64,000 bases of DNA from an uncultured delta proteobacterium (GTDB lineage Bacteria; Myxococcota_A; Polyangia; Polyangiales; Polyangiaceae), in the NCBI GenBank assembly GCA_963841435.1, contig CAWJCS010000003.1, positions 864,001 through 928,000 on the forward strand, in the 5' to 3' direction. Below the pieces are notes generated by a model. It was not told where the DNA came from, did not search any database, and saw only the letters and a list, made by a program, of their open reading frames with translations. Shown piece by piece: positions 4,127 to 48,434 of the stretch. The position numbers were made by a program, and so were the translations under genes. The stretch's first letter is position 1; each line of letters opens with the position of its first letter.

Positions 4127-6808
<2,682 letters not shown>

Positions 6809-26028: not shown

Positions 26029-26176
26029 CGCTCTTTTCGCTGTGGGTGGACGCGCTGTACGGCCCCTCTTGGGATATCAGCCAGTAGGGAAACTGGAGGT
26101 TTAGCGTGCGTGCAGCAGGGCGGCGCGCGCGGCGGGCGCTCCCGTAAGGCGGTGGCGCGTGCTAGCTTCCGGCACC

Positions 26177-27500: not shown

Positions 27501-28349
27501 GTGCTTTGCTGCCCTGGGTCCTTGTTCTCGCGCACGTTCGGCATCCTGCTCTGGTTCGTTCTGCCGGTTGCTCTGGTCGGCTTTCTCGATCTGACCACGG
27601 GGCCCGAGTACGGGCTCTCGATCCTCTACCTCGTGCCCGTCGTCCTCGCCGGGTGGCTCCAGGGCCCGAAGGTGGCAGGCGCCATCGCGCTCGAGGCCGC
27701 CGGGCTTTGGCTTTGGGCGGAGTCCATCACGCGCCCCGACGCCCCGCTGCTCGCGATTGCCTGGAACGGCTTCACGCGCCTGGCCATCTACGTGGCCATG
27801 GGCCTCGGCGCCGGCGTCCTGCGCGCCGACCGCGAACAGTTCAGAGAGCTCGCGCGCCGCGAGCAGGAGCTCGCCCGCACCGATCTCGTCACGGGCCTCA
27901 GCAATCGGCGAGCCTTCGACGAGCAGCTTCAGGCCGATCTCGCCCGCTCGCGCCGGGACCAGCGACCCCTGTCGGTGCTGATGCTCGATCTCGACAATTT
28001 CAAGCGCGTCAACGACGCCGAAGGGCACGCTGTCGGCGACCGTGCTCTCGCCGAGGTGGCCGTTGCCTTGCGTGGCGTGCTGCGCGAGGGCGACCGCGTC
28101 GCGCGGGTCGGCGGGGACGAGTTCGCCGCGATTCTCTGGGGCGTCGACGCCAGGGGTGCGCGCAGCGTCGCCGAGCGCGCCGTTCGCGCGGTCCGCAAGA
28201 TTGCGGAGCGCTATCCCAGCACCGAGCTCGGTGCGAGCGCCGGCGTCGCAGAGGACCAGGGCGGCGAGGCGAGCGCGCTCGTCGCGGCCGCAGACCAGGC
28301 GCTTTACCGAGCCAAGGAGGGCGGCAAGGGCATGGTCGAAGGACCCTAG
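27501..28349 (+). CDS. Membrane-bound diguanylate cyclase
   Basis: N-terminal TMs; TDLVTGLSNRR, DLDNFKRVND, intact GGDEF and RxxD I-site (REGD). Start uncertain. Confidence 0.9.
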   Translation: MLCCPGSLFSRTFGILLWFVLPVALVGFLDLTTGPEYGLSILYLVPVVLAGWLQGPKVAGAIALEAAGLWLWAESITRPDAPLLAIAWNGFTRLAIYVAMGLGAGVLRADREQFRELARREQELARTDLVTGLSNRRAFDEQLQADLARSRRDQRPLSVLMLDLDNFKRVNDAEGHAVGDRALAEVAVALRGVLREGDRVARVGGDEFAAILWGVDARGARSVAERAVRAVRKIAERYPSTELGASAGVAEDQGGEASALVAAADQALYRAKEGGKGMVEGP

Positions 28350-32440: not shown

Positions 32441-33192
32441 CAGTCGAGCACCTGCGCGCGGAGACGCACGCGAAGGTCGTACTCCCCGTCCTCGTCGTCC
32501 GGGAAATCGTCGGCCATGTCGGAGTCGTCCTGGATGCGAAAGCTCGTTTCGAGGCGCTTGCTCTCCGGAACGACGACGGCGAATTTCGAGACCTGATACG
32601 TACGATACGCGCGGTTGCGCGCGTCGTAGCGCTCGATCTCGACGCCGAGCATGTGATGGCCCGGCGCGACGGCGTGCTCGTACACGACCTGGGGCTCGTC
32701 GCCGCCGCCGAAGCGCTCCGCCGCAGCGAAGATGACGCCGTCGTCGAGCGTGACCTTGAAGCTTGCGACGCGCGCGTCGTCGCCCTCGACGCCGACGAGC
32801 ACGCGGAGCTTGCTCGAGAAGAGCGTCGTCGTCACGGCCGCCACGCGGCCGCGCAGCGCGGCGATGTCGGCGATGAGTCGATCGTAACCGGGCGGCGGCG
32901 GCTTCGGCGCGCCCGAAGGGAACTCGTTGGGCTCGGGCGTGAGCGGCGAACGCTTCACGGCGGGGGTGTCACCCTGCGTTTTCGGCGGGGCCTCGCCGAG
33001 GTCGTCGCCGGACGCCGCGGAGCCGGGCGCGGGCTCGTCCTCGGTCGCGGCGGGCTCGGCCTTCGCCTCGGGGGGCTTCGCGGGCTCGGCGGCGGCCGCA
33101 GGCTTGACCCCCTTCTTGGAGCGCGGCTGTGCCTGGGCGCCGAATGCGATCCCGAGCACCAAGAGGCCGATCAGAGGGACCTTGCCTCGCAT
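32440..33192 (-). CDS. Secreted hypothetical protein translationally coupled to the GltC-like gene
   Basis: Signal peptide, Pro/Ala linker, coiled coil and beta-rich C-terminal domain. TGATG overlap at 32440. Confidence 0.7.
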   Translation of the reverse strand: MRGKVPLIGLLVLGIAFGAQAQPRSKKGVKPAAAAEPAKPPEAKAEPAATEDEPAPGSAASGDDLGEAPPKTQGDTPAVKRSPLTPEPNEFPSGAPKPPPPGYDRLIADIAALRGRVAAVTTTLFSSKLRVLVGVEGDDARVASFKVTLDDGVIFAAAERFGGGDEPQVVYEHAVAPGHHMLGVEIERYDARNRAYRTYQVSKFAVVVPESKRLETSFRIQDDSDMADDFPDDEDGEYDLRVRLRAQVLD

Positions 33193-34296: not shown

Positions 34297-34980
34297 CTAG
34301 CTCGAGAACGGGATGAACAGGCTCAGACCGCCCGTGGCCGTGATGTCGTTCACGATCTTGTCGACGCCGAGCTGCACGCGCTGCTGCGAGTGCACGATGT
34401 CGCGCGTGTCGAGCCGGAACGCGAGCCATTCGGTGAGGTAGAACTTGAAGCCGAAGCCGCCGGAGCCGCTCAGGCCGAGATCACCCGGCTCGACGGTCGC
34501 GCCGCCGCCGAGCGCGACGTAAAAATCGTAGCGACCGATGGCGCCGCCGAGCCAGCGGACCTTGCCGTAGGCGATCGACCAGACCAGATGCCCGAGGAAG
34601 AACTGGATGGGGTTCGAATCCGCCTGGACGATGTCGATGAGGCCCTGCTGCCGCTGCTCGATGGCCTCGAGCAGGGAGTACTTCTGACGGGCGCGGAGGT
34701 AGCTTGCCTCGAGGCCGAGATCCTCGGTGAAGTGGAAGGTGTAGGCGCCGCCGTAGGTGGGAGCGCCGTCGGAGATGTCGCCCGCGTACCAGCCGCCGAA
34801 CGCCGAGATCTCGTGGCGGAGGGCCTTCTTGATGAGGCGCGGCACGACGCCGCGGTACGCGCGCTGGCCGATGAGCTGCTGCTTGAGCGCTTCGTCGACG
34901 CACTGGGCGCGGGCCTTTGCGGGCACGAGCAGGGCGAAGGCGACGGCCAGCGCGCCGAGCCAGACACGGACCGGGGGCAT
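34297..34980 (-). CDS. Myxobacterial outer-membrane beta-barrel protein, GltA/GltB/NfsA-like
   Basis: Signal peptide ending [21 protein letters not shown] and DFY motifs; alternating beta strands. Confidence 0.7.
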
Positions 34981-35203
34981 GTTCAGCGCGCCCTCGACGG
35001 GGGGCAGAACAACGCGGAAGCGGGTGCAGCGGCGCCGGCGCTCAACTCGCCATAGGGAACTATCACACCTGACACCGGCACGAAAAGCGCAGTTTTTCGC
35101 GCGGCCCCGCTGCCGTCTCGGGCACGCCTCGCTGCGCGGCCGACGGCGGCGGGGCGCGCCTCTCACGCCCCGCGCTGCGCGGTCGGCGCTAGGCTCTGGT
35201 TCC

Positions 35204-36541
35204 ATGCGGATACCGCTGTCTCTCGCGGCGCTCCTTCTGTTCGTGACGACGCGCGTCGCGGCCGAGCCGGCCCGGGGGGCGGACGCCTGCGCCGGCCCGC
35301 TCCGCTCGACGCTCACCACCGTCGGCTGCCGGCTCGCTGCCGGTCTCGGCGAGCGAGCGCAGGGCGCGCTCGTCATCGGCGTCACCCCCACGGCCGACCC
35401 ACCGGTCGCCGTGCGCGCCGAGCTCGCGAGCCGCCTCGCGCGGCTGGTCGCGGGGTCGATCGGGAGCGGCGCCACCGCCTGGCCCGCCGTGCTCGGCGCG
35501 GCGCGCGCCAGAGCGCTCTCCGACGGCCGGCGCCCGCTCGTGGTCGTCACGGCGCGCCTGGGCGACGCGCGCCTCGAGGTCACGGCCGACGCGTTCGTCG
35601 GCCGTGACACGCTGTGGCGCCGCCTGCGACGCGGGCGCTCGGGGCCCGTTTCGCACGCGTTCGCGGAGGGCCCACTCGACGCCGAGCTCAAGACGTTCTT
35701 GCCGCCCGTGCCGCTCGTCGCTCGCGAGATCATCAAGGGTCAGGGCGCCGACGCCGACCTCGTGGCGGTCGCCTGTGGCGACCTCGACGGCGACGGATCG
35801 CCCGAAATCGCAGCGCTCGGGCGTCGCCGAGTGTCCGTTTTGCGACTACGCGGGGGTCGCGTCGAAACGGCGGCGGCGAGGCCGCTCACGGCGCTCGCGC
35901 CCGTCGCCGGCACGCCGCTCCGCGAGCCGATCGCCGCGGCGTGGATCCCCGCGAAAGGAGCGCTCGACCTCGGCGTGACCGATCGAGCGGCCGCGCTGCG
36001 CCTGGACGCGAAGCTCCAGAGCGTGACGCCGCTCGCCGGGCGGCTGCCGTGGCCGGGAGGAGGCTGTGCGAACGTCGCCGAGCTCGGCGTGGCGCCGAAG
36101 CTCGAGCCGTGCCGTCCGGGAGAGGCGGCGCCGGGCGGCGAGGCCCCGGGCGCCGGAGCGGGCGATGCGCTCGCGGGCGCGCGCGTGACGCGGCGTGACG
36201 GCTCGGTCGCCGTCGTGCGTGCCGTACGGCTGCTCGGCACGAGCACGGCGAGCATCCGCGACGGCGCGCGCACGCTCACGGTCGAGCCCGTGGGAGCCGA
36301 GCTCGCCGTCGGGGACCTCGACGGCGACGGCTCGGCGGAGCTCGTCGCGAGCCTGGACACGCAAAAGCGCGAGGAGGACGCCATCGTCGTCTACGGCTTC
36401 TCCGCCGACGGTCAGGCGAGCGAGCGCTTCCGTCTACCCGTGCCGAGCGGCGTGCGCGCCGTCGGCGTGTGTCCGCTGCGCTCGAGCGCGATGGCGCCGA
36501 TCGTGGTTGCCACGGGAGATGGCCTTTGGCTCGTGCGCTGA
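35204..36541 (+). CDS. Secreted protein with FG-GAP/VCBS-like Ca-binding repeats
   Basis: Signal peptide; GDLDGDGSPE and GDLDGDGSAE. Confidence 0.7.
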   Translation: MRIPLSLAALLLFVTTRVAAEPARGADACAGPLRSTLTTVGCRLAAGLGERAQGALVIGVTPTADPPVAVRAELASRLARLVAGSIGSGATAWPAVLGAARARALSDGRRPLVVVTARLGDARLEVTADAFVGRDTLWRRLRRGRSGPVSHAFAEGPLDAELKTFLPPVPLVAREIIKGQGADADLVAVACGDLDGDGSPEIAALGRRRVSVLRLRGGRVETAAARPLTALAPVAGTPLREPIAAAWIPAKGALDLGVTDRAAALRLDAKLQSVTPLAGRLPWPGGGCANVAELGVAPKLEPCRPGEAAPGGEAPGAGAGDALAGARVTRRDGSVAVVRAVRLLGTSTASIRDGARTLTVEPVGAELAVGDLDGDGSAELVASLDTQKREEDAIVVYGFSADGQASERFRLPVPSGVRAVGVCPLRSSAMAPIVVATGDGLWLVR

Positions 36542-37869
36542 GGCCGGGAGCGCCCGCGCGCGCAAGCCGCCGCGCCTTCGGAGCGCTCCTTCTGCTCGCG
36601 CCCGGCGCGAGCGCGCTCGGGCGGACGCCGCTCGGCGGCACGCTGCGACTGAGCGTGCCGTTTTCGACCCGCGAGCTCGATCCGCACGCGGGCGACAGCG
36701 CGATCGCGGCGTTGTTCGCGCCAGCCGTCGCCGATCCGCTGTTCGCGCTCGACGAGGAAGGGCGCCCCTACGCGGCGCTCGCCGAAGCGCTGCCCGAGCG
36801 CACCGCCGAGGGCGCGCGCCTCACGTTGCGCGCCGGGCTCGTGAGCGCACGCGGCAAGCGCCTCGACGCGCGCGACGTGGCCTTCTCGCTCGCCCGCGCC
36901 GCCCGCCTCGGCGGGGCCGCGACGCTCGGCGAGCTCCCGGCGCCGAGCCCCGATGCGCGCGACAGGCTCGCGCTCGTGTTTCCCGGCGCAGACCCGACGG
37001 CGGTCGCCGTCGCGCTCGCGAGCCCTCTCACCGCGCTCGTCCCGCGCGGCTTCTCCGCGGCTCGCCCCGACGGCACGGGCGCATTCCGGGCCACCGTGAC
37101 GGCGTCGGGACTGACGCTCGAGCGCAACGTCGTCGCGGCGCGCGGCCCGGCGTTCCTCGAACGCGTCGAGGTGACGCGCGCCGCCGGTCTCGCCGACGCG
37201 CTGCGCGCCTTCGAGTCGGCGCGGGCCGACGTGGGTTGGCTCGGAGCGGGCCTTCACCAGCCGCGGCGCGGCTCGGTGGCACTCGCCGGGCCGGACTACG
37301 GGCTGCTCGTGCTCCGCACCGGACGCGAGGCGCGCGCCTGGGCCGCGCCGGGCATCGCGCAGGGGCTCCTCGACCGCGTGCCGCCGGGCGCCCTCGCGCA
37401 CCTCGGCGTGCGAGACGTGGGCGGCACGCGACGCGCGGGCGCGCTGTGGGACGGCGGTGCCGCCGAGCTCGTCGTGGCATCCGACGAACCGATGCTCGGC
37501 GAGATTGCCGAGGCGCTCGCGGGCCTGCTCGCACCGCGCGCGGGGACGCTCGCCGCGCGCGGCGTCCCGCCGAGCGAGCTTGCCGCACGGCGAGCCACGG
37601 GCGCCTTCGCGCTCATGCTCGACTTCGTGCGCCTCGCCGGTCCGCCGGGGCGCGCAACCTTGCTCGCGCTGCTCGCCGCGACGAGCCCCGAACTCGCGCG
37701 CCGCCCGCCGCGCCCACCGTCTTACGAGCCACGCGACGTGGCACGCACTCTCCCGCTCGGCGTCGTGGGCGCCCTGCACGTCACGGGCGCGCGGGTGCCC
37801 GAGCTCGGCGGGCTCGAGCACTGGCAGCTCGGCAACGCCTATCTCACGCCGAATAGCGCACCGCCCTGA
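36526..37869 (+). CDS. Family-5 (Opp/Dpp-like) extracellular solute-binding protein homologue
   Basis: Twin-Arg-like SRRAF signal; GGTLRL..LDP, LA..P, LDARDVAFSL and GTGAF. TTG start with GGGAGA upstream. Confidence 0.65.
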   Translation: MARALRPGAPARASRRAFGALLLLAPGASALGRTPLGGTLRLSVPFSTRELDPHAGDSAIAALFAPAVADPLFALDEEGRPYAALAEALPERTAEGARLTLRAGLVSARGKRLDARDVAFSLARAARLGGAATLGELPAPSPDARDRLALVFPGADPTAVAVALASPLTALVPRGFSAARPDGTGAFRATVTASGLTLERNVVAARGPAFLERVEVTRAAGLADALRAFESARADVGWLGAGLHQPRRGSVALAGPDYGLLVLRTGREARAWAAPGIAQGLLDRVPPGALAHLGVRDVGGTRRAGALWDGGAAELVVASDEPMLGEIAEALAGLLAPRAGTLAARGVPPSELAARRATGAFALMLDFVRLAGPPGRATLLALLAATSPELARRPPRPPSYEPRDVARTLPLGVVGALHVTGARVPELGGLEHWQLGNAYLTPNSAPP

Positions 37870-37933
37870 CGTTGGCGGCGACGCGTCACGCGGCGCCGGG
37901 ACGACCGCGCTACGACCGCGGCACCGTTCGCCG

Positions 37934-38797
37934 TCAGCGGGCGGCGTCGAGCACGGCGCGGCCCGCCGCTTCGAAGTGGGCCTGTAAGACGGCGCCGGGG
38001 ACGGCCGCGTCGCGCCGCGCCGAGATGCTGCGGGCGGCGTCGAAGGCGGCGCCTTCGAGGCCGAGCGCCGTGTAGAGCGCGCCCTCGAGCTCGGCGAAGA
38101 GCGCTTCCTCGTCGGGGCCGAGCGGGCCGCACTCGGGGGCCGCCCGGCCGCGGTCGCGCGCGAGGCGGCGCCGCGCGGCCATCTTCAGCCGCATCTTGAG
38201 GACCGACAGCAGGTACACCGACGAGCCGTTCATGTCGGACGCGAGCCGGTCGCGGTCGGCGCGCCAGGCCGCGTCGAGGTCGAGCTCGGCCGCGCGCCAG
38301 GCGGGCGCCCCGGCGAGGCCCGCGAGCGCGGAGAAGTAGCCCACCTGCTCGGTGTGGTGCTCCTCGCTCGCGAACTTGTCGAGGTGACACAGGTCGTGGA
38401 TCAAGAATTCGAAGCCGTCACGCGGACCGTGCTCGACCGAGACGGGGAGCAGGCTCGCGCAGCGCGCACCGCGCGCCTGCAGCGCGAGCACGTGCGCCGC
38501 GGCGGGCACGTCGCGGCGAAGCTCGACGGAAAAGCCGCCCGACCAGCGAAACAGCGCCCGCACGGCGCGCTCGGGCACGCGGCAGAGCCGCCGTGTCGCG
38601 AGCAGCGAGAGCGCGGGCGACGGTGGCCCGCCGAGCGGCTCGCGCCGCGCGCCCTGATCAGCGCGGCGGCCGAGCGCCTGCGCGGCGCGCTCGACGAGGT
38701 ACGCGGCGGCGTGCTCGGCGTCGTTTTCGGGCGTGGAACGGCTCGGCCCGCCGGCGTCGACGCTGTCGAGCAGCGGTCGCCCCAAAAAACCAACCAT
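37934..38797 (-). CDS. Hypothetical protein with HDLCH motif
   Basis: Coherent ORF with GC3-biased codons; conserved-looking FLIHDLCHLDKF, EQVGYF and SDMN blocks. Confidence 0.6.
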   Translation of the reverse strand: MVGFLGRPLLDSVDAGGPSRSTPENDAEHAAAYLVERAAQALGRRADQGARREPLGGPPSPALSLLATRRLCRVPERAVRALFRWSGGFSVELRRDVPAAAHVLALQARGARCASLLPVSVEHGPRDGFEFLIHDLCHLDKFASEEHHTEQVGYFSALAGLAGAPAWRAAELDLDAAWRADRDRLASDMNGSSVYLLSVLKMRLKMAARRRLARDRGRAAPECGPLGPDEEALFAELEGALYTALGLEGAAFDAARSISARRDAAVPGAVLQAHFEAAGRAVLDAAR

Positions 38798-38827: not shown

Positions 38828-39598
38828 CTACGGTACCTTGGTCGGCTCCGGCAGCTGGGCGCCGCCGCGCACGGCCTTGACGATGCTTTCGCTGAGCTTG
38901 TCGTCGGCCTTCACGCATTTCAGGCTCACGTCGCCGCTCGTCGCGCCCTTGCACTCCTTGCGACGCGCCTGGTACGCCTCGTTGATGGTGCTGTCGGTGC
39001 GCAGTGCTTCCTGCACGTTGTCGTCGAGGAAGCGCCAGTCGATGTGGGCCGCCTTGGGCTGCGGCGGCTTGTCGAGCGTCATCTCCTCGGCCGAGAGCGT
39101 CACGCAGCTGCCGTCCCAGCGCAGCGCGTCGTAGCTTGCACCCGCGCCGCTCACCTGCATGCCGCCGAGATCGGCCTTTCGCTCCATCAGCACGAGGACT
39201 TCCTCGTCGAACTCGAGCCAGCCGTTGTCCGACGCGCCACCCGAAGCGTTCCAGGCCCTGGTTTTTCCGCGCAGGTAGCCGCGCGCCCACGGCGAGCCGT
39301 TGGCGAACAGGTAGAGCGCCACGCCGGGAAAGCTCGCGGCGCAGAGCCTTTCGACGAATTTTCGCGGCGGGACGCAGGTGCCACCCTTCTTGCTGCACTC
39401 CTTGGGGACGCCCGCCGTCTCGCTCGCGCGGGTCGCTTCGCCCTCGCCGGCGCTCGACCCGTCACCCTCGTCGCTCGCGGGGCCCTCGGCGGCGTCGCTC
39501 GATGCCGAGGGCGCGGCCGGCGGGGGTGCGCCGCCACCGCAGGCGAGCAGAAAGAGCGCGACGGGGATCGGAAGCTCGAAGGCACGCATGGTCGTCAT
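38828..39598 (-). CDS. Hypothetical Cys-containing lipoprotein
   Basis: Lipobox LLAC; ATGA overlap with the upstream gene. Confidence 0.7.
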   Translation of the reverse strand: MTTMRAFELPIPVALFLLACGGGAPPPAAPSASSDAAEGPASDEGDGSSAGEGEATRASETAGVPKECSKKGGTCVPPRKFVERLCAASFPGVALYLFANGSPWARGYLRGKTRAWNASGGASDNGWLEFDEEVLVLMERKADLGGMQVSGAGASYDALRWDGSCVTLSAEEMTLDKPPQPKAAHIDWRFLDDNVQEALRTDSTINEAYQARRKECKGATSGDVSLKCVKADDKLSESIVKAVRGGAQLPEPTKVP

Positions 39599-40326
39599 TT
39601 CCCCTTGACGTTCGGCGGCACGGCGACGGTCGCCTTCGCTTTCCAGTGGTCGACACTCGCCTTGACGCGGGCAAGCTGCCTGACGGCGCGGCGATTGGCC
39701 GGACCCGTCCCGAGGCCCCAGAGCCCCACGTCGAGCTCGACGCTCTCGCCGTTGCCGAGCGGCTTCATGCCGTGCTTGCCAGGCCATTCGCGTGAAAGCT
39801 TGACGGTGGTTCCGGCGCCGAGCGGCTGGTCGCCATCGCCCTCGCGCTCGTCCCCGAAGGACTCGGCGTCGCTCTTGCCCCCGCGCTTGACCGCACCGGC
39901 GAACGCGAGCGGTCCGTTCTTCGGAGCGAGCAGCGAGCGGTCCTCGCTCGCCGTGGCCGAGACGACGACGCGCACGCCGAAGCCCGCGGGCGTCCGCACC
40001 GTCTCGGCTTTGATCATGAAGCGCACGTCGTCGACCTCGGCCTTGAGCCCCTCGGGCATGAGCACGTAACGAACGGTGCGCTGGGCGTTCGGGTCGCGCG
40101 CCGGCGGTGCGGGCTCGTCCGGCTGATCGTCGGCGGGCACCGTGTCGTCGGTCCGAGCGGGATCGGAGCCGACGCTCTCCGCGGGCTCCAAAGGGGGCGG
40201 CTCGGGCGCGACGCTCGCGGGCGCTTCGGGGGCCGCGGCCGCTGGGGTTTCGGCGGCGCCGCCGCCGCAGGCGACGAGCGCCATCGCGAGGGGAGCGAGA
40301 AGGACGAGCGGAGCAATGACCCGCAT
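39595..40326 (-). CDS. Hypothetical lipoprotein
   Basis: Lipobox LVAC, Pro-rich linker and beta-rich domain; RBS GAGGGAG. Confidence 0.7.
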   Translation of the reverse strand: MRVIAPLVLLAPLAMALVACGGGAAETPAAAAPEAPASVAPEPPPLEPAESVGSDPARTDDTVPADDQPDEPAPPARDPNAQRTVRYVLMPEGLKAEVDDVRFMIKAETVRTPAGFGVRVVVSATASEDRSLLAPKNGPLAFAGAVKRGGKSDAESFGDEREGDGDQPLGAGTTVKLSREWPGKHGMKPLGNGESVELDVGLWGLGTGPANRRAVRQLARVKASVDHWKAKATVAVPPNVKGK

Positions 40327-40487
40327 CGCTCCCTCTTACCCTGGAAAATGCACGGCTTGAAAGGCCCTTGCCTCGACCGCCCGAGCCGGCGGGGCCCTCG
40401 GGCGCGCGAGCACGCGAACGACGCGTCGCGCCACGGCCGAAAAGTACCATCGCCACGTCACACACGCGAGGCTACGCTTCGCGCCAA

Positions 40488-41834
40488 ATGACCGGCGGAG
40501 AGCGCGAATCCGGGACCCCGCCGAGCGGAGCCGCACCCCACGGTGCACCGCGCTTCCAGAAGATCCGCCGCATGAACCGGGGGGGCATCGGTTGCATCGA
40601 CGTAGCCAGGGACCCGGTGATCGGGCGCCGCGTCGCCATCAAGGTGTTGCGCTCGGAGCTCGAGGGCAACGATGCCGCCGCGCTCAAGTTCGCCGAGGAG
40701 GCGCAGATCACGGGTCAGCTCGAGCACCCGAACATCGTGCCCATCTACGATCTCGGGTACGACGAGCGCGGTCCGTACATCGTGATGAAGCTCATCCGCG
40801 GGCTCAGCCTCGCGGAAGCGATTGCCGACGTGCGCGGCCGCGAGCGCCCCGAGCGGCTGCAGGAGCTCGTCGAGGTCGTGCTCAAGCTGTGCGATGCGCT
40901 CGCGTTCGCCCACAGCCGCGGCGTGATTCACTGCGACGTTAAGCCCGAGAACGTGATGGTGGGGGATTTCGGCCAGGTTTACCTGATGGATTGGGGGGTG
41001 GCGCTCGTCGCCTCGGGACGCGAGGGCTCCCCGAGCCAACGCGGCACGCTGCCGCCCCCCGCTTCGCCGCAAAAGGAGCCCTGCGATGCCGCCGAGCACG
41101 ACTCGTTCGTGCACATCGACATGTCCGCCGTCTCGAGCAGCAAGGTGTGGGGCACGCCGGCCTACATGGCGCCCGAGCAAGTGTCGGCCAGGAGCGAAGC
41201 CATCGACGAGCGCACCGACGTCTTCGGCATCGGCGGCATCCTGCACGAGATCCTCACGGGCCGACCGCCCAACGACTGGCAGAAGCTGATCGGGCCGGGG
41301 CTCAACCACCCGCTCGAATCGTTGCCCGACAAGAGCGACCTCTGGCCGCGCCTGCCACCGGAGCTCTGCCGCATCGCACTTAGGGCGCTCTCGCCGAAGA
41401 GCGAGGACCGCTACCCCACGATCCCCGCGCTCAAGGCCGATCTCGAGCAGTTCTTGCGCGGCGGGGGCTGGTTCGAGACCCAGACCTTCCCGCCCGGTGC
41501 CCTCGTGATTTCCGAAGGAGCGCCCGGCGACGCCGCGTACATCATCGAGAGCGGGCACGCCGACGTGTTCAAGCACATGAACGGCGAGCGCACCTTCGTG
41601 CGCCGTCTCGGCCCGGGGGAGGTCTTCGGTGAAACGGCCGTGCTCACGGGCGGCGCGCGCACCGCGACCGTCGTCGCAGTTGACGCGCTGAGGCTCAAGG
41701 TGATCACGGGTGAGTCGCTGAACCGGGAGCTCGATCTGAACCCATGGCTCGCGGCGTTCGTGCGCTCGCTCGCGAGGCTATTTAGCGAGACGGACCAGCG
41801 TCTGTCACGACCGGAGGGGCTCGGTCGCACGTAG
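40488..41834 (+). CDS. Ser/Thr protein kinase with C-terminal cyclic-nucleotide-binding domain
   Basis: VAIK, HCDVKPEN, DWG and GTPAYMAPE; CNB domain EGAPGDAAYIIESG..GEVFGETA..RTATV. Confidence 0.9.
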   Translation: MTGGERESGTPPSGAAPHGAPRFQKIRRMNRGGIGCIDVARDPVIGRRVAIKVLRSELEGNDAAALKFAEEAQITGQLEHPNIVPIYDLGYDERGPYIVMKLIRGLSLAEAIADVRGRERPERLQELVEVVLKLCDALAFAHSRGVIHCDVKPENVMVGDFGQVYLMDWGVALVASGREGSPSQRGTLPPPASPQKEPCDAAEHDSFVHIDMSAVSSSKVWGTPAYMAPEQVSARSEAIDERTDVFGIGGILHEILTGRPPNDWQKLIGPGLNHPLESLPDKSDLWPRLPPELCRIALRALSPKSEDRYPTIPALKADLEQFLRGGGWFETQTFPPGALVISEGAPGDAAYIIESGHADVFKHMNGERTFVRRLGPGEVFGETAVLTGGARTATVVAVDALRLKVITGESLNRELDLNPWLAAFVRSLARLFSETDQRLSRPEGLGRT

Positions 41835-41885
41835 GGGGCGGAGGTCGGTAGCGAGAGAAAAAACCAGCAGCGAGAGGGAGACGCC

Positions 41886-44800
41886 ATGACGGTCACGACA
41901 AGCAGCAAGAGCCTTCGTACGTTGACGGAGCTGACGCTCCTCGCGGACATCAAGCCGGGCTTCGTGCCCGTGCCCGACCTCATGTCTTACGCGACGCGCC
42001 TCGGCGCGCTGCTCAAGGCCCTGTTCGGGCTCAGGCGGCAGAGCATCGAGGCGGAGCCGTCCGGCTACGTGGGACCGCTCGAGCGCTTGCAATCGCTGCA
42101 CTTCGTGCGCTGGTCGATCCTCGAGGGGAAGAAGCTCTTGCTCGGCGTGAGCTTCGACCGCGCCTGGGAGCCTTACATTCGCGGCATCGTTGACGAAGCG
42201 GGGCCGTTTCTCGACGTGATCTTTTGCCATACCAAGGACTACGACGGGCACGCGACGAGCGACGGCTACGCGAAGTTCTCCCAGTGGGTGCGCGCGCATC
42301 AGGTTGACGTGCCGTTCTTCTACGCCGGCAATCCCGGCCTCACCGTCGACGACGAACGCTTTCTCGCCGAGTACGAGCGGCGCGTGCGCGCCGGCGACGA
42401 CGCGACGGACCTGGTGCTCCCCGAGCCCGGCGCCGAGGCACCGAAGCAAGAAGCCCCGGACATCGCCCAACGTCGCCTCCGGCGCGCGACGCGGGCGCTC
42501 GCGCTGATTCGCGAGTTTTTCCCGCCCGGGCGAGACCAGGACTTCTTCGACCACGCGGTGTTTTCGCTGCTCGAGGGCCTGGTCCCGCGCTCGGCCGGCG
42601 AGAGCATCGACGACGCGCTGAAGGCGCTCGCCGCCGCCGCGCCCGACATAGCCCAGCCGCTCGCAGCGATGCGCCAAAAAGTTCCCGGAGCGGCGCTGCT
42701 CGAGGACGACGAGGAGGCCGACGATCTGTCCGACGATCTCCAGGGTAACGTGCGCACGGGCTACCGTGGCATGACCCATGGCTGCCTCGCGCTCTTGCGC
42801 TGCGACGGCCGAAAGGCGGCGCGGAAGCTGCTCGCTCGCCTCGTCGCTCACGTGACGACCGACGCGTGCGCGAACGAAGCCAAGGAGGCCGTCAACGTGG
42901 CGCTGACGCGGGACGGCCTGCGCACGCTCGGCGTGAGCGAGGCCGAGCTCGCCGTCTTCCCCGCCGAGTTTCTCGAAGGCATGGAGGCGCGCGCCGGGCT
43001 GCTCGGCGACGTTGAGGCCGAGCATCCGTCGCGCTGGCAGCTGCCGAGGTTCGACGGCGATCCGGTGCCCCTGTCGAGCGTCGACGCAGTGCTCTCCGTG
43101 CAGGCGTCGCCCGCGAAGGTCGGGCCGAACGACCACGTGTTCGGCGCCGAGCATCCACTCGCGCCGCGGCTCGCCGCGCTGCTCGAGGGCCTCGAGGGGG
43201 TGAGCGTGCTGCACGTCGAGCCGCTCCTCAGGCGGCCACAACCTCCAACCGAGCCCTTCGTGCGCGAGCACTTCGGCTTCGTCGACGGCATCAGCCAACC
43301 GGTTCCCCGGGCGCGGCGCGCGGACGCACCGCCGTCCCGCGACGAGGTCGCGCTCGGCGAGGTCGTGCTCGGGTATCAGGACGATCACGGAGAGCGCCCT
43401 CCGGGAAGCGACGGCGGGCTGCTCAGGCACGGCAGCTTTCTCGTCGTGCGCAAGCTCGTGCAGGACGTGAGGGCGTTCCACGCGTTCGTGGCCACGTCCG
43501 GCATCCCCGCCGAGCGGCTCTACGGCGCGCTCATGGGACGCAAGCGCGACGGCGCGCCCCTCGTGGGACGCGGGGCGAAGGGAGACAACGATTTCGACTA
43601 CTCGGAAGCCGAGGCGAACCAGAAGTGCCCGGTCGCTTCGCACGTGCGCCGCACGAACCCGCGCACGCCCGATCGCCTGTCCGTGCACGGCCGGCCCATG
43701 CGCACGCCGCGCATCGTGCGGCGCGGCTTCTCGTTCGGCCCGATCGACCCCGAGATCGAAGCCCCCCGCGGCCTCGTGTTCATGGCCTACAACGCGAGCA
43801 TCGCGAATCAGTTCGAGGTGCTGCAGCGCTGGATCAACGGCGGCAACAGCACGGGCGACCTCAGCAGCCACTCCGACCCCGTCGTGAGCCACGCGCACCC
43901 GCGCGTCGTCACCGTGCCCCACGACGGCAAGCACGTTCGGCTCCAGAAAACGAAGCCGTTCGTCACGCTCGCGTGGGGCATGTACCTCTTTTCGCCATCG
44001 CGGAGCGCGCTCAGCGAGCTCGCCGCGCGCGACGAGACGCGCGACCGAGAGCTCGCGCGGGTCGACGAAGACGAGCTGGCCGCGCGGGGACACGAGATCA
44101 TCACCAAGCTCGAGCTCGCTCACGCCGTGCTCGGCGAAACCGCTGCGCGGGCAGAGTGGAAGCTCGTGCTCGAGGATCGCGGCGCGCGCGAGCAGGGGCG
44201 GGCCGTGTGGGCGGCGATCCGCCGGCGGGGCGGCGCGCTCCGCACTCCGTACGGCGTGCTCGTGGGGAGCGCCGACGCGGTGCTCGACGTGCTCGCCGAC
44301 GACGGGCGCTGCTCGGTGCGCGGCTACTACGAACGCATGGAGGCCTCCGTCGGGCCGCTCTACCTCGGTATGGACCGCTGCCCGGTCGCGCACGAGGGTG
44401 CGGGCTCGCAAGCCGACCAGCATTACGAGCGCGTGGTCCAGCCGGGAACCTACGACGCGTCGGCCGAGGCTCCCAATCGCTTCATGCGCGGCCTCACGCG
44501 CGAAGACGCCTTCTCGGCCACCCGGCAGGCGGCGCTGCTCACGCTCGCGGGGCTCGCGACGCTGAGCCCGCTCGTTGACCTTCGCTACTACGCCGCGGGA
44601 ACGGCGCGCCGCGTGTCGGAGGCTTGGTTCGGCCTGCCCAACGCGGATGAGCAGTTTCGGGAGATCTTCTCGGTCGCGGCGCAGAGCATTTTCGATCCCC
44701 ACCCGGAGCCCGTGGTGCTCGCCGAAGCGGAGAAGGCTCGCGAGAAGCTCCGCACCGCGGAGGAGAAGCTGCTCGAGACGAACCCGCCCATGCTCGCCGC

Positions 44801-45359
44801 CCTGCCCGGTTTCGACGACGAAGAGAAGAAGCGGGCGCTCGTCGGGGGCGCGCAGGGTTTCCTCGTGGCGACCGTCGCAAGCTTCGTGGGCGTCGCCGCC
44901 GACTGGCTCGAGAGCGGACGCGCCGCGCGGCTCTCGCAATGGCTGCGCACCGCGGCCCCCCGCGGGCTCACCGATCCGCACCAGAAGCCGTCGGCTGCCG
45001 ACCTCGAGGACTGCGTCTGGCTCGTGCGCGAGCTTTACGACGCGCTTCGGCGCCACCCGCAGCCGGACATCCTGTACAGAAAGGCCGTCGTCCCGAAGAG
45101 CGTGGCGGACGGTGCCGTGTTCGTCGCGCCGGGCGACACGCTGGTCGTCAGCCTGGCCTCGGCTGCGGCGGAGCGCCCGGAATCGATCGACATCCTGTTC
45201 GGCGGGGCCGATCCACGCCGCGCGGACGACCCGCATCCGCTCCACTACTGCCCAGGCAAGGAAGCGGCCATCGGCGTCATGCTCGCGCTCGCCGTGACGC
45301 TGCTCCAAGAGCACGAGCTCAGGCTCGAGGTGCCGCTGTCGATCTCGTTCAAGGCGTGA
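41886..45359 (+). CDS. Multidomain hemoprotein: unknown N-terminal domain + DyP-type peroxidase + atypical cytochrome P450 domain
   Basis: DyP: EHFGFVDGISQP, GSFLVVRKL, HVRRTNPR, RIVRRG, GLVFMAYNASIANQFE. P450: DALRRHP (ExxR-like) and FGG..HYCPG Cys ligand. RBS GAGGGAG. Confidence 0.85.
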   Translation: MTVTTSSKSLRTLTELTLLADIKPGFVPVPDLMSYATRLGALLKALFGLRRQSIEAEPSGYVGPLERLQSLHFVRWSILEGKKLLLGVSFDRAWEPYIRGIVDEAGPFLDVIFCHTKDYDGHATSDGYAKFSQWVRAHQVDVPFFYAGNPGLTVDDERFLAEYERRVRAGDDATDLVLPEPGAEAPKQEAPDIAQRRLRRATRALALIREFFPPGRDQDFFDHAVFSLLEGLVPRSAGESIDDALKALAAAAPDIAQPLAAMRQKVPGAALLEDDEEADDLSDDLQGNVRTGYRGMTHGCLALLRCDGRKAARKLLARLVAHVTTDACANEAKEAVNVALTRDGLRTLGVSEAELAVFPAEFLEGMEARAGLLGDVEAEHPSRWQLPRFDGDPVPLSSVDAVLSVQASPAKVGPNDHVFGAEHPLAPRLAALLEGLEGVSVLHVEPLLRRPQPPTEPFVREHFGFVDGISQPVPRARRADAPPSRDEVALGEVVLGYQDDHGERPPGSDGGLLRHGSFLVVRKLVQDVRAFHAFVATSGIPAERLYGALMGRKRDGAPLVGRGAKGDNDFDYSEAEANQKCPVASHVRRTNPRTPDRLSVHGRPMRTPRIVRRGFSFGPIDPEIEAPRGLVFMAYNASIANQFEVLQRWINGGNSTGDLSSHSDPVVSHAHPRVVTVPHDGKHVRLQKTKPFVTLAWGMYLFSPSRSALSELAARDETRDRELARVDEDELAARGHEIITKLELAHAVLGETAARAEWKLVLEDRGAREQGRAVWAAIRRRGGALRTPYGVLVGSADAVLDVLADDGRCSVRGYYERMEASVGPLYLGMDRCPVAHEGAGSQADQHYERVVQPGTYDASAEAPNRFMRGLTREDAFSATRQAALLTLAGLATLSPLVDLRYYAAGTARRVSEAWFGLPNADEQFREIFSVAAQSIFDPHPEPVVLAEAEKAREKLRTAEEKLLETNPPMLAALPGFDDEEKKRALVGGAQGFLVATVASFVGVAADWLESGRAARLSQWLRTAAPRGLTDPHQKPSAADLEDCVWLVRELYDALRRHPQPDILYRKAVVPKSVADGAVFVAPGDTLVVSLASAAAERPESIDILFGGADPRRADDPHPLHYCPGKEAAIGVMLALAVTLLQEHELRLEVPLSISFKA

Positions 45360-48300
45360 GGCAACGCTTGGCGCGCGCGGCGAACGCGTGCATCCCGAGC
45401 TCGCGGAACGCCTCGGGCAGCGTGCCCGCGAGGTCGCGCGCCTCCTTGGCGTCCTTTTCGCCGTGGAGCAGCTCGGCCCGCGTGAGCTGCGTCAGCAGGA
45501 GCTCTCGCCGCGACTCGTGGGAGGCCGCGACCTCTTCGGCCCGATTCGAGCTCCGATTTCGCGCGCTCGATGTCCCTTTCTCGCGCGGCAAGCCGCGCAC
45601 GCACACGGTACGCCGGCACCTCGCCCAGGCGGTCGCCCGCCTCGGCACGCTCGAGCGCCCGGCCCGCGGCCCGCGCAGCCCCCTCGTCGTCGCCCGCGGC
45701 GAAAAGCGCCTCGGCGAGGCAAGCGCACCAGAACGACAGAAACAGGCGCATCCCGCGCTCGTCGAGCCAGGACACCACGCGGCCGAGCTCACCGAGCGCC
45801 GCCGGATCGGCACCGAGCATCGCTCGCGCGAACGAGCCGAGCGCCTCGCTCGTCGCGAACACGTAGGGCCCGCTCATCCGCTCGGCGCGCAGACGGCTCA
45901 CGCTCGCGGTCTGCACGCAGTCGCCGTAACGCCCCTGCCAGACCTCTATCATACCACGGAGCCCCATCAGCGAGGCCTCGACGGCGTGCTCGGCGCCCCG
46001 CACGGCCCTGAGCGCGGTCTCCATCGTGGCAGCGCTCTCTTGAAAATCTCCCTGGTAGCCCTGCACGAGCGCCTCGACGCCGAGGGCGTACGCGAAACCC
46101 ACGGGCACGGCGCGCAAGAAGTGAGTCTTCACCTGCGTGCGCTTGAGCTCGAGGGCGCGCTCGAGCATGGCGAGAGCTTGCGTGCACTCCGCGGATGCCG
46201 CGTGCACGTGTCCTAGATTGGCGAGGAGTTGCGCCACGAGCTTGAAGCTGCCCGTGTGCTCGGCGATGGCGAGCGCGGCACGCGCGTGGGACGAGGCGGA
46301 CTTGGCATCCCCGAGCGCGTAGTGGATCCAGCTCAGCCAGTAGTGGCTGCGCGCGATCGCCTCGGGATCGTCCAGCTTGACGGCGAACTCGAGCGCCCGC
46401 TCGAGCAGCCCCACCTGCTCGGGCGCGGGGCTGAACACGCACGCCGCCGCCCATTTCCAGGCAATCTCGAGCCAGCGTCGGCGCGTGGGCGCCGACGTTG
46501 AAATGCGGTCGAGCTCGAGCATGGCGGCGCCGTATTGCTGGCGCGCGCAGTCGAGCGACGACGCCGCTGCCGCCTTGTCGCCCGCGAGCTCCGCGTACAT
46601 GCTGGCGCGCTCGGGCTCGGCGGCGCCCGCCCAATGCGCGGCGAGCGCCTCGCTCCGTTCGAGCGCGCCGCTCTCGCCGAAACAGTCTTCGATGGCGCGT
46701 GCGATGGCACCGTGCAAGCGGCGGCGCTCACCGAGCTTCACGGAATTGTACACCACCTCACGCGTGATGCCGTGCTTGAAGCGGTAGAGTCCCGAGCTAT
46801 AGCCGGCGTAAACGAGGTCGTTCTCGGCGAGCGAATCGAGCGCCTGGGCCAGACCGTCGGGGCCGACGATGCGCGAGAGCAGCCATTCCTCGAACTCGCT
46901 GCCGATCACGGCGGCCGCCTGCGAGACCAGTGAAAGCGCCGGGGGCAAGCGCTGAACGCGAGCCTGGATGAGACCGTGAATCGTGCTCGGCACGCTCTTT
47001 TCGCGACCGAGGTCGAGCTCCACGCCGTCGCGCGACAGCGCCTGGCAGAGCTCTTCCAAGAAGAGGGCATTGCCGCCCGCGCGCTCCTTCATGGCGCCCG
47101 TGGTCTCGAGATCGAGCGCCGTGGGCATGAGCGCCCGCATCATGGCGTCCACCTCGTCCGTGTCGAACGGCATCAGCTCGATGAAGCCGCTCTCGCCGGA
47201 GACCGGCGCCATCACCTTCCCGGTACGCGCGCACGTCACCACGAGCACGCGCCGGGCCTCGCGCGACAGGCCCGCCACGAGATCGGCGAGCAGCTGCCGT
47301 GAGGCGTCGTCCGCCCACTGCCAGTCGTCGAGCGTCAGAACGACGGGGCCGCGCTCGGAGAGGGCGGTGATCCATTGCACGAACGCGTTCGAGAGCGACC
47401 CGTCCTCGGACTCTTGCTTCACGGGCGCGCCGAGCGACAGCGCCTGCAACAACGCTGGCAGTTGACGCAAGAGGCGGCGATCGAGGGCAGCGAGCTCTGC
47501 TTCCACGCGGCGCGCCGACGCTTCGCGAGGCGTATCGGCCTTGAGCCCGAACGCCTGGCGGAGGATCTGCAAGAACGGTTGCAGCGGCGCGATGTTGCCG
47601 TAGCTCTCGCAGTGCCCGGCGAACGTCCGGAGCTCGGGTTGCTCGAGCCGGCGCCGAAACTCCTCGAGCAGCCGCGTTTTGCCGACGCCCGCGTCGCCGC
47701 GCACCTCGAGCACCCGGACCTTGCCCGACAGCACGGCCGCGAGCGCACCGTCGAGCGCAGCGATCTCGCGCGAGCGGCCGATGAACGTCGTGAGCCCACG
47801 CCGGGCGCGCGCCTCGAAGCGCGTCGCGACGCCCGTGCGCCCGAGCACGCGATACACGGGCACGGGCTTGCCCTTGCCCTTCAAGCGCAAAGGCTCGACG
47901 GCCCGCGTCTCGAAGAACGGCTCCACGCCGCCGAGCGCGCTCTCGCTCGCGAGGATCTCGTCGTTCCCCGCCGCCGCGCAGAGACGCGCCGCCGTGTTGA
48001 CCGGGTCGCCGACGAGCTCGTAGCGGCCCTCCGCGGGGTCGGCTTCGCGCGCGTACACGAGGCCCGCGTGGATGCCCGTGTGCAATCGCGCGATGAAGCC
48101 CGGCGGCAGATCGACGTTCGAGCTTTAGCTCGCGGATGGCGGCGTGCAGCTCGAGCGCGGCCTCCGCGGCCCTTCGCACGTCGTCCTCGCCAGGGGTCGG
48201 CAGGCCGAAGACGGCGAGGAGGCCGTCGCCGTAGAATTGATTGAGCGTGCCGCCGTGCTTCTCGATGATGCCCTTGGCGAGCGCTTTCGTGCGATGAAGC

Positions 48301-48434
48301 AGCAACGCCACGAGCTCGGGATCGCTCTCCTCGTTGAGCGCCGTGTAGTCGCAGAGATCCGAAAAAAGCAGGCCGACGTGGCACCGCCGCTCGACCGAGA
48401 CGGGCCCGTCCGACCTTTTGCCACCTCGTGTCAT
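45349..48434 (-). CDS. Class III nucleotide cyclase - AAA/STAND ATPase - TPR protein (two +1 frameshifts at ~48117 and ~45545, likely sequencing errors)
   Basis: LFSDLCDYT, NQFYGDG and GDPVNTAARL; FIGR, GDAGVGKTRL, LDDWQWAD, GGNALFLEEL and FKHG; C-terminal TPRs. Removing two bases gives one ~1027-aa frame. Confidence 0.88.

Follow-up and report, generated by a model that had tools for sequence, protein, structure and literature searches.

What does a bacterial protein do that appears to carry two different heme enzymes on one chain, the second of which escapes ordinary domain detection? The question is raised by a gene of an uncultured delta proteobacterium of the family Polyangiaceae (contig CAWJCS010000003.1, assembly GCA_963841435.1), located in a stretch of 64,000 nucleotides (nt; positions 864,001 to 928,000, forward strand) that was analysed as a whole and is called the window below. 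A sequence-only reading of this gene had proposed a DyP-type peroxidase fused to a cytochrome P450 domain with hallmarks of the CYP74 clan, that is, a bacterial analogue of the fungal fusions of a dioxygenase or peroxidase with a P450. The order of a DyP followed by a P450 fold stands, but that description had overlooked an N-terminal domain of 282 amino acids (aa) and a conserved cyclase neighbour. The product is predicted to be a cytoplasmic three-module, two-heme oxidoreductase, an assignment that we hold tentatively, at somewhat less than even chances, and it probably oxidizes lipid-derived molecules within a cyclic-nucleotide module. The DyP-P450 combination is widespread, with 338 relatives when one genome per species is considered, but unstudied.

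Three modules in one polypeptide

The open reading frame (ORF), P0001, begins 7 nt downstream of a Shine-Dalgarno-like GGGAG, and its GC content at third codon positions (GC3) is 0.89, matching other genes of the window. A scan of positions 40000-46000 gave no promoter-like sites and three terminator-like ones, with 2.9 expected. The frame and all motif positions of the sequence-only reading were recovered (GFVDG at 43275, HVRRTNPR at 43641, RRG at 43719, Cys pocket at 45198-45257; Table 1).

Below, P-numbers denote proteins of the family, 251 of which were retrieved in all, and L-numbers denote the fetched genomic loci. A word-indexed search with the whole protein yielded 120 proteins at E ≤ 0.001 among 7,997 scored candidates; the best 37 matches after the query covered 97-100% of it, except for P0032 (64%). 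When the C-terminal 447 aa were searched exhaustively by themselves, 519 representative clusters (50% identity) matched at E ≤ 0.001, of which 358 were at ≤ 1e-10 and 53 at ≤ 1e-30. Given the many near-full-length homologues, the DyP-P450 architecture is not due to chance. None of the 120 homologues carries a source name mentioning P450, the names being 'Dyp-type peroxidase', 'EfeB' or 'hypothetical'. We found no DyP-P450 fusion in the open full-text literature; subscription journals and bioRxiv supplements lie outside that search, and an earlier description is possible.

The C-terminal module is not seen by standard domain models. It has no Pfam match at E ≤ 10, PF00067 (p450) included, and among 21 C-terminal domains of the family the p450 model matched only one, at E = 0.26. 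The best phmmer match of the single sequence in PDB was CYP97C1, with an insignificant E-value of 0.34. By contrast, the full-length family profile matched the P450 7qan at 1e-6 and CYP51, NasF5053-type, CYP19 and CYP125 enzymes at 1e-4 to 1e-3, all of these matches falling within the last ∼230 positions of the profile. A profile of the C-terminal domain alone matched 51 PDB sequences at E ≤ 1, of which 50 were P450s and one was a photosystem II protein. As single-sequence searches fail and profiles succeed, the P450 homology is visible only by profile methods.

Structure comparison points the same way. The AlphaFold2 (AF2) model of the 447-aa domain, built from a 65-sequence alignment, had a predicted local distance difference test score (pLDDT) of 95.4 and a predicted template modelling score (pTM) of 0.93. 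Foldseek returned at least 500 PDB matches at E ≤ 0.001, and among the matches listed all were P450s, aligned with the 447-aa model over 410-483 columns at template modelling (TM) scores of 0.49-0.62. At the top of the matches listed were CYP184A1 (7wzl, E = 2.7e-10), P450BioI, CYP97C1, CYP51, CYP102A5 and CYP134A1. Several top entries are fatty-acid complexes; the E-values are too alike across P450s, so no substrate specificity can be read from them. In hhalign, the family domain aligned with the P450 domain of the relative P0120 (96.4%, E = 1.2e-9, 346 columns) and with a P450 clade of 12 sequences, A6 (99.3%, E = 3e-20, 333 columns). The comparison of the C-terminal 447 aa with P450s, by AF2, Foldseek and hhalign together, thus gives a P450 fold, and residues ∼771-1157 are predicted to form a genuine, deeply diverged P450-fold domain overlooked by Pfam.

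P0120 joins this domain to recognizable P450s. It is a protein of 1620 aa with a Pfam-recognized p450 domain at aa 69-420 (2.9e-12) and a DyP at the C-terminus. From its N-terminus it consists of P450 (aa 57-457), another stretch resembling the N-domain (∼aa 500-560), a hydrophobic region, the N-domain (986-1087) and DyP (1125-1617), with the long hydrophobic stretch at ∼aa 680-920 probably spanning the membrane. Hence P0120 has the same three module types as P0001, but in permuted order and with the hydrophobic region added, and DyP-P450 coupling appears to recur in a permuted arrangement. The P450 domain of P0120 has 37 shorter relatives, many of them source-named 'cytochrome P450'. Many 'cytochrome P450' proteins of 620-890 aa extend along P0120, and some of these may be truncated copies.

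This 'cytochrome P450' clade (e.g., Reyranella sp.; P0252-P0279) contains the nearest recognizable P450 relatives of the target domain. The 12-sequence alignment of clade A6 shows ExxR (E310 and R313 invariant), a PERF-like P..F...R segment, a canonical Cys pocket F381-G-x-G-x-H-x-C388-x-G390, and an I-helix G-F-I-P-T with an invariant Thr and no acid. An I-helix motif G-F-x-P-T without the acid is common to the clade and the target family; unlike the family, the clade keeps ExxR, the PERF-like segment, canonical pocket spacing and detectability by Pfam.

The middle module is a full-length match to DyP peroxidases, which in solved structures have two ferredoxin-like halves. A phmmer search of PDB aligned aa 282-712 with residues 9-441 (of 445) of 8re3_A at E = 5.9e-34, other C/D-type DyPs coming next, and the family profile matched the same chain at 1.2e-73. 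With the membership models, Pfam PF20628/PF21105 and TIGR01413, Dyp_perox_C scored above its cut-off (E = 1.6e-7; 31.7 bits against 20), DyP_N below it (15.6 against 27.5) and TIGR01413 slightly below (E = 2.5e-27; 96.1 bits against 100.5). The catalytic motifs are intact, as had been claimed, with His586, Arg612 and Arg613 invariant and Asp467 highly conserved (Table 1); the roles given to these residues follow the DyP literature. Since the proximal His, the GxxDG Asp and RRG are all kept, the peroxidase machinery is predicted to be intact, and the module appears to be a complete C/D-type DyP whose heme would have a His ligand and, on the distal side, an Asp/Arg pair. The nearest solved structures, 8RE3 and 8RE2, are linked to the DyP of Deinococcus radiodurans (PMC10820274). 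P0001 shares with such C/D-type DyPs the full-length alignment, the proximal His, the GxxDG Asp and RRG, but differs from them in that its DyP is the middle module of 1157 aa, placed between the N-terminal and P450-like domains, and in its marginal TIGR01413 score.

The N-terminal module belongs to no known family. It has neither a Pfam match nor a sequence match in PDB, and Foldseek with its AF2 model (pLDDT 87.8) found no PDB structure at E ≤ 0.001, only a weak ABM/DABB-like resemblance. In the ESM Atlas only unnamed clusters were found, their scores of 0.87-0.88 being below the Atlas reliability line. Residues R38, F90, E95, Y97, D110 and D156 are invariant. BLASTP aligned target aa 63-158 with residues 986-1087 of P0120 (E = 2e-7), where the module likewise stands directly before the DyP; therefore, it belongs with the DyP and, as far as the sequences tell, seems always to travel with it.

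Table 1. Coordinates of P0001, its modules and motifs, and its two adjacent genes in the window
Feature	Residues (aa)	Coordinates (strand)	Basis
Target ORF P0001: N-terminal domain, DyP, P450-like domain	1157 aa	41886..45359 (+)	open frame, ATG start
N-terminal domain	1-282	41886..42731 (+)	ferredoxin-like beta-alpha-beta-beta-alpha core at aa ∼8-140, then helices
Complete DyP-type peroxidase domain	282-712	42729..44021 (+)	phmmer, PDB, Pfam, TIGR01413
GFVDG (GxxDG motif, distal Asp467)	464-468	43275..43289 (+)	D467 in at least 90% of 50 sequences
HVRRTNPR (proximal heme ligand His586)	586-593	43641..43664 (+)	H586, R588, N591, P592, R593 in 50/50
RRG (distal Arg region)	612-614	43719..43727 (+)	R612, R613 in 50/50
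Linker helices and predicted diverged P450-fold heme-thiolate domain	711-1157	44016..45356 (+)	P450 homology from aa ∼771
Arg817, candidate heme-propionate ligand (B'/C-helix region)	817	44334..44336 (+)	R in 126/128
I-helix, G987xxxG991-F-L-V-A-T996	978-1010	44817..44915 (+)	helix of the AF2 model; no acid-alcohol pair, no Asn
DALR at the K-helix ExxR position	1052-1055	45039..45050 (+)	not conserved in family
Arg1065	1065	45078..45080 (+)	R in 128/128; aligned with conserved post-K-helix Arg of solved P450s
Cys pocket FGGADPRRADDPHPLHYCPG: F1105-G-G, 12-residue variable loop, H1120-Y-C1122-P-G	1105-1124	45198..45257 (+)	conservation in 128 sequences
Convergent class III cyclase, AAA_16 (STAND) NTPase, TPR		45245..48389 (-)	Pfam; tblastn
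Ser/Thr protein kinase with C-terminal cNMP-binding domain, 51 nt upstream		40368..41834 (+)	Pfam Pkinase 1.6e-32, cNMP_binding 2.9e-19

The predicted heme pocket of the P450-like domain

Residue conservation in this domain was counted in 128 family sequences with ∼30% overall identity. The positions kept are C1122 (128 sequences), H1120 (127), P1123 (123), R1065 (128), P1060 (128), R817 (126), G991 (128), F1105 (127), G1106 (128) and G1107 (124). We take them to include the thiolate Cys, the HxC His and the heme-propionate Arg of ordinary P450s; the propionate role of Arg817 is presumed from general P450 knowledge. In the AF2 model, the L-helix begins three residues past Cys1122.

Other P450 signatures have been lost. 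The K-helix ExxR does read DALR in P0001, as the sequence-only reading had it, and hhalign with clade A6 puts D1052 and R1055 exactly on its E and R. Within the family, however, position 1052 is occupied by R (39 sequences), A (18), Q (12) or E (11), and position 1055 by Q (56) or R (19). The PERF-like meander segment corresponds to a gap of 13-16 columns in hhalign with both P0120 and clade A6, and this loss of the meander would explain why ExxR is no longer conserved.

The I-helix has the family consensus G-F-x-(P/A)-(P/T)-T, with P, A or V at the acid position. The (A/G)Gx(D/E)T(T/S) motif is absent from target aa 978-1010, so that AGxET is indeed unrecognizable there, the acid being missing. 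The claimed loss of the I-helix Thr is doubtful: T996 lies one residue off the canonical position and, as the bridging clade has an invariant Thr without the acid, the Thr has probably not been truly lost. Overall, Cys1122 as presumed thiolate, the His of HxC and two Arg at heme-propionate positions appear to be kept in the P450 module, from which the ERR lock, the greater part of the meander and the acid that O2 activation requires in the I-helix have been lost. A CYP152-type peroxygenase was also considered. CYP152 peroxygenases have an I-helix Arg-Pro pair; no conserved Arg precedes the I-helix Pro in the 128 sequences, and this assignment is not favoured.

The Cys pocket had been described as having 16 residues between F1105 and C1122, which is correct, and hence an insertion of about 10 aa. 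The canonical P450 motif is FxxGx(R/H)xCxG, given together with the HxC rule in PMC13049297. The Phe is at C-17 in the target and from C-11 to C-33 in the family, never at C-7, and the canonical spacing is thus not seen. These distances were obtained for 230 of the 251 proteins, 21 of which did not fit the search pattern; the mode is 14 (74 sequences), and the value of 17 is common to 30. An apparent distance of 7 in P0014 was a regular-expression artefact of two FGG motifs, the real one being 11. Pro occupies C-4 in 88 of the 128 sequences, and the loop is the only low-confidence stretch of the AF2 model, with pLDDT dipping to 73.

Two alignments of this region disagree. HMMER with solved P450s (E = 0.003-0.005) sets L-F-G-G on the Phe of the meander ('rFDP', 'DVFRPG') with no indel, so that F1105 would belong to PERF, whereas hhalign with the closer P450 clade sets F1105-G1106 on the pocket F-G, with a 10-column insertion before H-x-C and the meander deleted. 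We consider the insertion the probable reading of these alignments, since the hhalign statistics are far stronger than those of HMMER, F-G-G is almost invariant, as would be expected of a pocket motif, and the F-to-C variation of 11-33 suits a surface loop between fixed anchors. Moreover, distances of 11-14 are too short for PERF-to-Cys, which is 19 in the solved-P450 alignments, and meander loss would also account for the loss of ExxR. By hhalign the insertion has 10 columns, HMMER needs none, and the length is variable: 10 aa in the target and 4-26 residues across the family.

Genomic context and possible function

The genome scan, with one genome per species, matched 428 stretches, of which 338 encode relatives, and 79 loci were fetched. 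They come from Polyangiales, other Myxococcota, and Alpha-, Beta- and Gammaproteobacteria, with Bradyrhizobium, Sphingomonas, Sneathiella, Variovorax, Roseateles, Pseudorhodoferax and Paucibacter among the genera and Pseudomonadales also represented; one Actinomycetes and one Spirochaetaceae metagenome-assembled genome (MAG) are included. The carriers include cultured, non-pathogenic strains such as Variovorax soli NBRC 106424 (L021), Roseateles saccharophilus DSM 654 (L077), Sphingomonas changbaiensis NBRC 104936 (L022) and Bradyrhizobium lablabi CCBAU 23086 (L034). The best genome match is 44% identical, so the species of the window is outside the scanned set.

Members of the family are repeatedly associated with lipases. 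Among 18 long members scanned with Pfam, seven have an N-terminal patatin domain and three a C-terminal GDSL lipase domain. A homologous GDSL-like extension was found by phmmer in 26 of the 251 proteins, including P0088 of Variovorax sp. KK3, and the GDSL-like domain is encoded by a separate gene just downstream in L056. Separate patatin genes lie at most two genes from the target in at least eight loci (L006, L010, L022, L029, L034, L037, L042, L060), those of L029 and L006 having been scanned directly and the other six assigned by BLAST cluster. In L035, a Polyangiaceae locus, a gene of the AMP-binding, acyl-CoA-synthetase-like type (4545-6356, +) lies directly upstream of the target, which is a further fatty-acyl hint.

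To describe the neighbourhood, ORFs of the 79 loci were called by a GC3-weighted greedy heuristic, and the 864 ORFs were clustered by BLASTP. The target was recovered in 72 loci, and the other seven were left out of position counts. A cluster of ∼1030-aa proteins combining a cyclase, AAA_16 (STAND) and TPR occurs in 59 of the 79 loci, and all four of its members scanned with Pfam had Guanylate_cyc, AAA_16 and TPR. In 49 of the 72 loci, the cyclase gene is immediately downstream of the target and convergent with it on the opposite strand. Target and cyclase genes meet stop to stop with 4-nt overlaps in distant lineages (L003, L006 and others), an unusually close convergent layout that could mean transcriptional interference or a shared terminator. 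Beyond the cyclase, eight Roseateles/Paucibacter loci (L046, L050, L054, L061, L072, L073, L077, L078) have a gene of a cluster of ∼420-aa proteins, c4; its member L046:14589-16049 has no Pfam match and could be a lineage-specific further component.

The window has this cyclase as well (Table 1). It is 41.5-44.8% identical to three orthologues over more than 830 aa, but in two frames: by tblastn, orthologue residues ∼17-115 fall in frame -3 (48389-48093) and residues ∼107-958 in frame -1 (48118-45566). The frame change near 48093-48118 is either a real frameshift, making this copy a pseudogene, or a sequence error. Its 3' end overlaps that of the target by ∼115 nt, compared with a 4-nt overlap or a distance of ∼35 nt in orthologous pairs. 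On the other side of P0001 is a kinase with a domain for cyclic nucleoside monophosphates (cNMPs), a possible cNMP receptor of the module. Crp-type cNMP-binding regulators were found in 22 loci (two members scanned), and a cNMP-binding ABC protein in L039. Sigma-54 activators, TonB receptors, MFS, MCP, RecQ and MutS proteins were rejected as parts of the system, being lineage-specific neighbours.

Redox partners are not seen. None of the 35 window ORFs scanned with Pfam contains a ferredoxin, flavodoxin or FAD-reductase domain, in line with the sequence-only reading, and the annotated neighbour clusters of related loci include no conserved one of ferredoxins or reductases. Lacking a fused or nearby reductase or ferredoxin, the P450 would be expected to act on a pre-oxidized substrate, a peroxide or hydroperoxide, or through the peroxide shunt, and judging from the sequence NAD(P)H-driven monooxygenation would be unexpected. 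The fusion or adjacency of relatives to patatin and GDSL/SGNH lipases makes a lipid-derived acyl chain the most likely substrate, and the near-universal cyclase-STAND-TPR neighbour together with nearby cNMP-binding regulators would place the enzyme in a cyclic-nucleotide module. From these fusions and this synteny, and from the architecture, folds and residue conservation described above, we infer a reductase-independent enzyme that binds two hemes and acts on lipid-derived (hydro)peroxides within a cNMP module; we prefer this interpretation, at a confidence just short of one half. A lipase would free a fatty acid, one heme domain would form or reduce its hydroperoxide, and the other would rearrange the hydroperoxide; in the source genome, the cNMP-binding regulator would be the Ser/Thr kinase. 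The scheme allows either heme to act first and the DyP either to make or to reduce the hydroperoxide, and the product may feed the cyclase.

A more specific version would be a self-contained bacterial cascade resembling that of eicosanoids or oxylipins, which as a whole we consider doubtful. Here the fatty acid would be released by a patatin or GDSL lipase, which many lineages have fused to the enzyme or next to it; the DyP heme would dioxygenate it via a protein radical, or reduce its hydroperoxide; and the reductase-free P450 module would then rearrange the hydroperoxide. The TPR sensor of the STAND cyclase would read the resulting oxylipin, and cAMP or cGMP would act on Crp-type regulators or, here, on the cNMP-binding Ser/Thr kinase. 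If so, dioxygenase-type lipid chemistry would be seen for the first time in a DyP, and the P450 would be a new clan invisible to current domain models.

Several observations weigh against an enzyme of lipid (hydro)peroxides in a cNMP module. We know of no DyP that is a fatty-acid dioxygenase, and no family-specific residue of the DyP domain marks a catalytic Tyr. TM scores of 0.49-0.62 are low for a comparison between P450s, and the modelled active site may be very different from theirs. Most members have no fused lipase: at least 33 of the 251 proteins have one, with 18 scanned by Pfam, and the 35 window ORFs scanned include none for a lipase, lipoxygenase or desaturase. Esters other than lipids are likewise among the substrates of patatin and SGNH hydrolases. 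As to signalling, the convergent orientation means that target and cyclase are not co-transcribed, and with the cyclase frame split the module may be impaired here, unless the split is a sequence error.

The same facts can be read in other ways. The protein could be driven by peroxide to oxidize or detoxify substrates other than lipids, for example aromatics, secondary metabolites or generic organic peroxides, with both hemes using H2O2 (a DyP plus a P450 peroxygenase) and the lipase fusions being lineage-specific add-ons. DyPs typically oxidize dyes and phenolics, a P450 without O2-activating residues and partners also suits a peroxygenase, and most members, the target included, have no fused or adjacent lipase; still, two unrelated lipase families are repeatedly fused or adjacent, the I-helix lacks the Arg-Pro pair of CYP152, and conserved signalling neighbours are not expected of a detoxifier, so that we regard this as unlikely. 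Less likely again is a heme-based sensor of O2, NO, CO, H2O2 or redox state that regulates the STAND cyclase directly or indirectly without making a product. Such a role would account for the tight, phylum-spanning synteny with the genes of the cyclase-STAND-TPR protein and of cNMP receptors. Proteins are frequent ligands of the TPR sensors in STAND proteins, and the N-terminal domain has no assigned function. On the other hand, the full DyP catalytic set, with the distal Asp and Arg, is kept, which a pure sensor does not need, and the hydrolase fusions point to metabolism.

The presence of a STAND cyclase and patatin also brings to mind an anti-phage or abortive-infection module, in which the STAND cyclase would sense infection and produce a cyclic nucleotide that sets off a patatin phospholipase and a heme-driven lipid peroxidation harmful to the membrane. 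STAND NTPases are common in defence, and in PADLOC P0055 matches CBASS phospholipase-effector models with its patatin domain (1.1e-41), while an orthologous cyclase weakly matches Pycsar cyclases (9.4e-15). However, P0001 and the window cyclase match no PADLOC model, the PycC matches reflect generic similarity of class III cyclases, and the kinase matches (PD-T4-6 and others) generic kinase similarity. In addition, the locus lies among housekeeping-type genes and its synteny is kept across orders, like a core regulon and not a mobile defence island, which makes this explanation highly improbable. We give slightly less credence still to the C-terminal domain being a heme-less structural relic of a P450, in a protein that would then be a DyP with accessory domains. 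ExxR, PERF, the canonical FxxGxHxCxG spacing and the Pfam signature have all been lost, as a relic would predict, but near-invariance of Cys1122, His1120, Arg1065, Arg817 and F-G-G at ∼30% identity is hard to explain without heme. A two-heme enzyme of lipid-derived (hydro)peroxides in a cNMP module is thus the reading that we retain.

With neither a Pfam p450 match nor a P450 name, the domain would be missed by genome-wide P450 counts, which affects Variovorax, Bradyrhizobium, Sphingomonas, Roseateles and many Polyangiales. Few natural proteins join two different heme enzymes, and those that do are instructive as to mechanism. The family suggests that a P450 fold can persist without the ExxR/PERF lock while the thiolate pocket is kept, which bears on the minimal needs of heme-thiolate chemistry. 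Finally, a bacterial route from membrane lipid to second messenger is suggested by the lipase fusions, taken together with the phylum-spanning association with a STAND cyclase and cNMP receptors; very few systems of bacterial oxylipin signalling are known.

Other parts of the window have features of their own. A second STAND-type protein of 893 aa (4127-6808, +) consists of a Ser/Thr kinase, AAA_16 and TPR, the same NTPase-TPR chassis as in the cyclase neighbour with a different output domain. The ORF at 26159-27460 (+) encodes the two halves of a copper type II ascorbate-dependent monooxygenase (PHM/DBH-like), an enzyme seldom found in bacteria; a GGDEF diguanylate cyclase comes next, at 27501-28349. 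GC content peaks at 0.776 (36001-38000) and 0.761 (60001-62000), compared with a window mean of ∼0.70, and the ORFs at 30386-32440, 32440-33192, 34297-35736, 37934-38797 and 39595-40326 have no Pfam match.

Comparison with CYP74, fungal fusions and bacterial systems

According to PMC8124189, CYP74 is marked by the Cys ligand, an ERR triad, an insertion of nine residues in the heme-binding loop, a PPV domain and an I-helix groove that carries a catalytic Asn. As far as that source describes the clan (AOS, HPL, DES, EAS), the target is like it in having the Cys ligand and, in the best alignment, a heme-loop insertion, and in lacking a reductase and the classical I-helix acid-alcohol pair. It differs in the absence of PPV and of an Asn from the I-helix, in an ERR triad that is not conserved, and in an insertion of variable length. 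The Asn is absent from target aa 978-1010, the nearest Asn column of the family being aa 999 (N in 54 of 128 sequences), and the motif after ExxR is H-P-Q-P-D in the target and P-x-P in the family consensus. CYP74, allene oxide synthase and prostacyclin synthase occur neither among the 41 Foldseek rows listed (to rank 50) nor among the 51 PDB profile matches at E ≤ 1. The label 'CYP74-like' is therefore not supported, there being no Asn, an unconserved ERR, P-Q-P in place of PPV and an insertion of 4-26 residues instead of nine: among the hallmarks as the source gives them, only the Cys is clearly present, membership in CYP74 is rejected, and the resemblance is convergent at best.

Among bacterial systems, the oleate-diol synthase of Pseudomonas aeruginosa (PA2077/PA2078) is similar in using a peroxidase fold, of the di-heme cytochrome c peroxidase type, for fatty-acid oxygenation and oxylipin signalling (PMC4496055). 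It differs in being c-type di-heme and encoded by two genes, with no P450, no DyP and no sequence relation to the target. On the signalling side, the conserved neighbour has exactly the Pfam architecture of class III cyclase-AAA_16 (STAND)-TPR signalling proteins, and no report in the open full-text literature pairs such a cyclase with a DyP-P450 enzyme.

A parallel in design is offered by the fungal dioxygenase (DOX)-P450 fusions, which include Ppo, linoleate diol synthases, 8/9-AOS and EAS (reviewed in PMC13049297). The proposal of a lipid-oxidizing analogue of these enzymes has gained support, indirect but independent, from the patatin and GDSL-like fusions and the adjacent patatin genes. 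As these enzymes are presented in that source, both they and the target have, on one polypeptide, a His-ligated heme domain of peroxidase type followed by a reductase-free P450 that retains HxC, and the fatty-acid context of the fungal enzymes is suggested for the target family by its lipase fusions. However, the first domain of the target is a DyP, a ferredoxin-like barrel, and not the COX/animal-peroxidase fold; it has no identified catalytic Tyr, an extra N-terminal domain precedes it, and the host is bacterial. What is new relative to the fungal plan is thus the different first fold, the hidden P450 clade, the extra domain and the conserved signalling partner.

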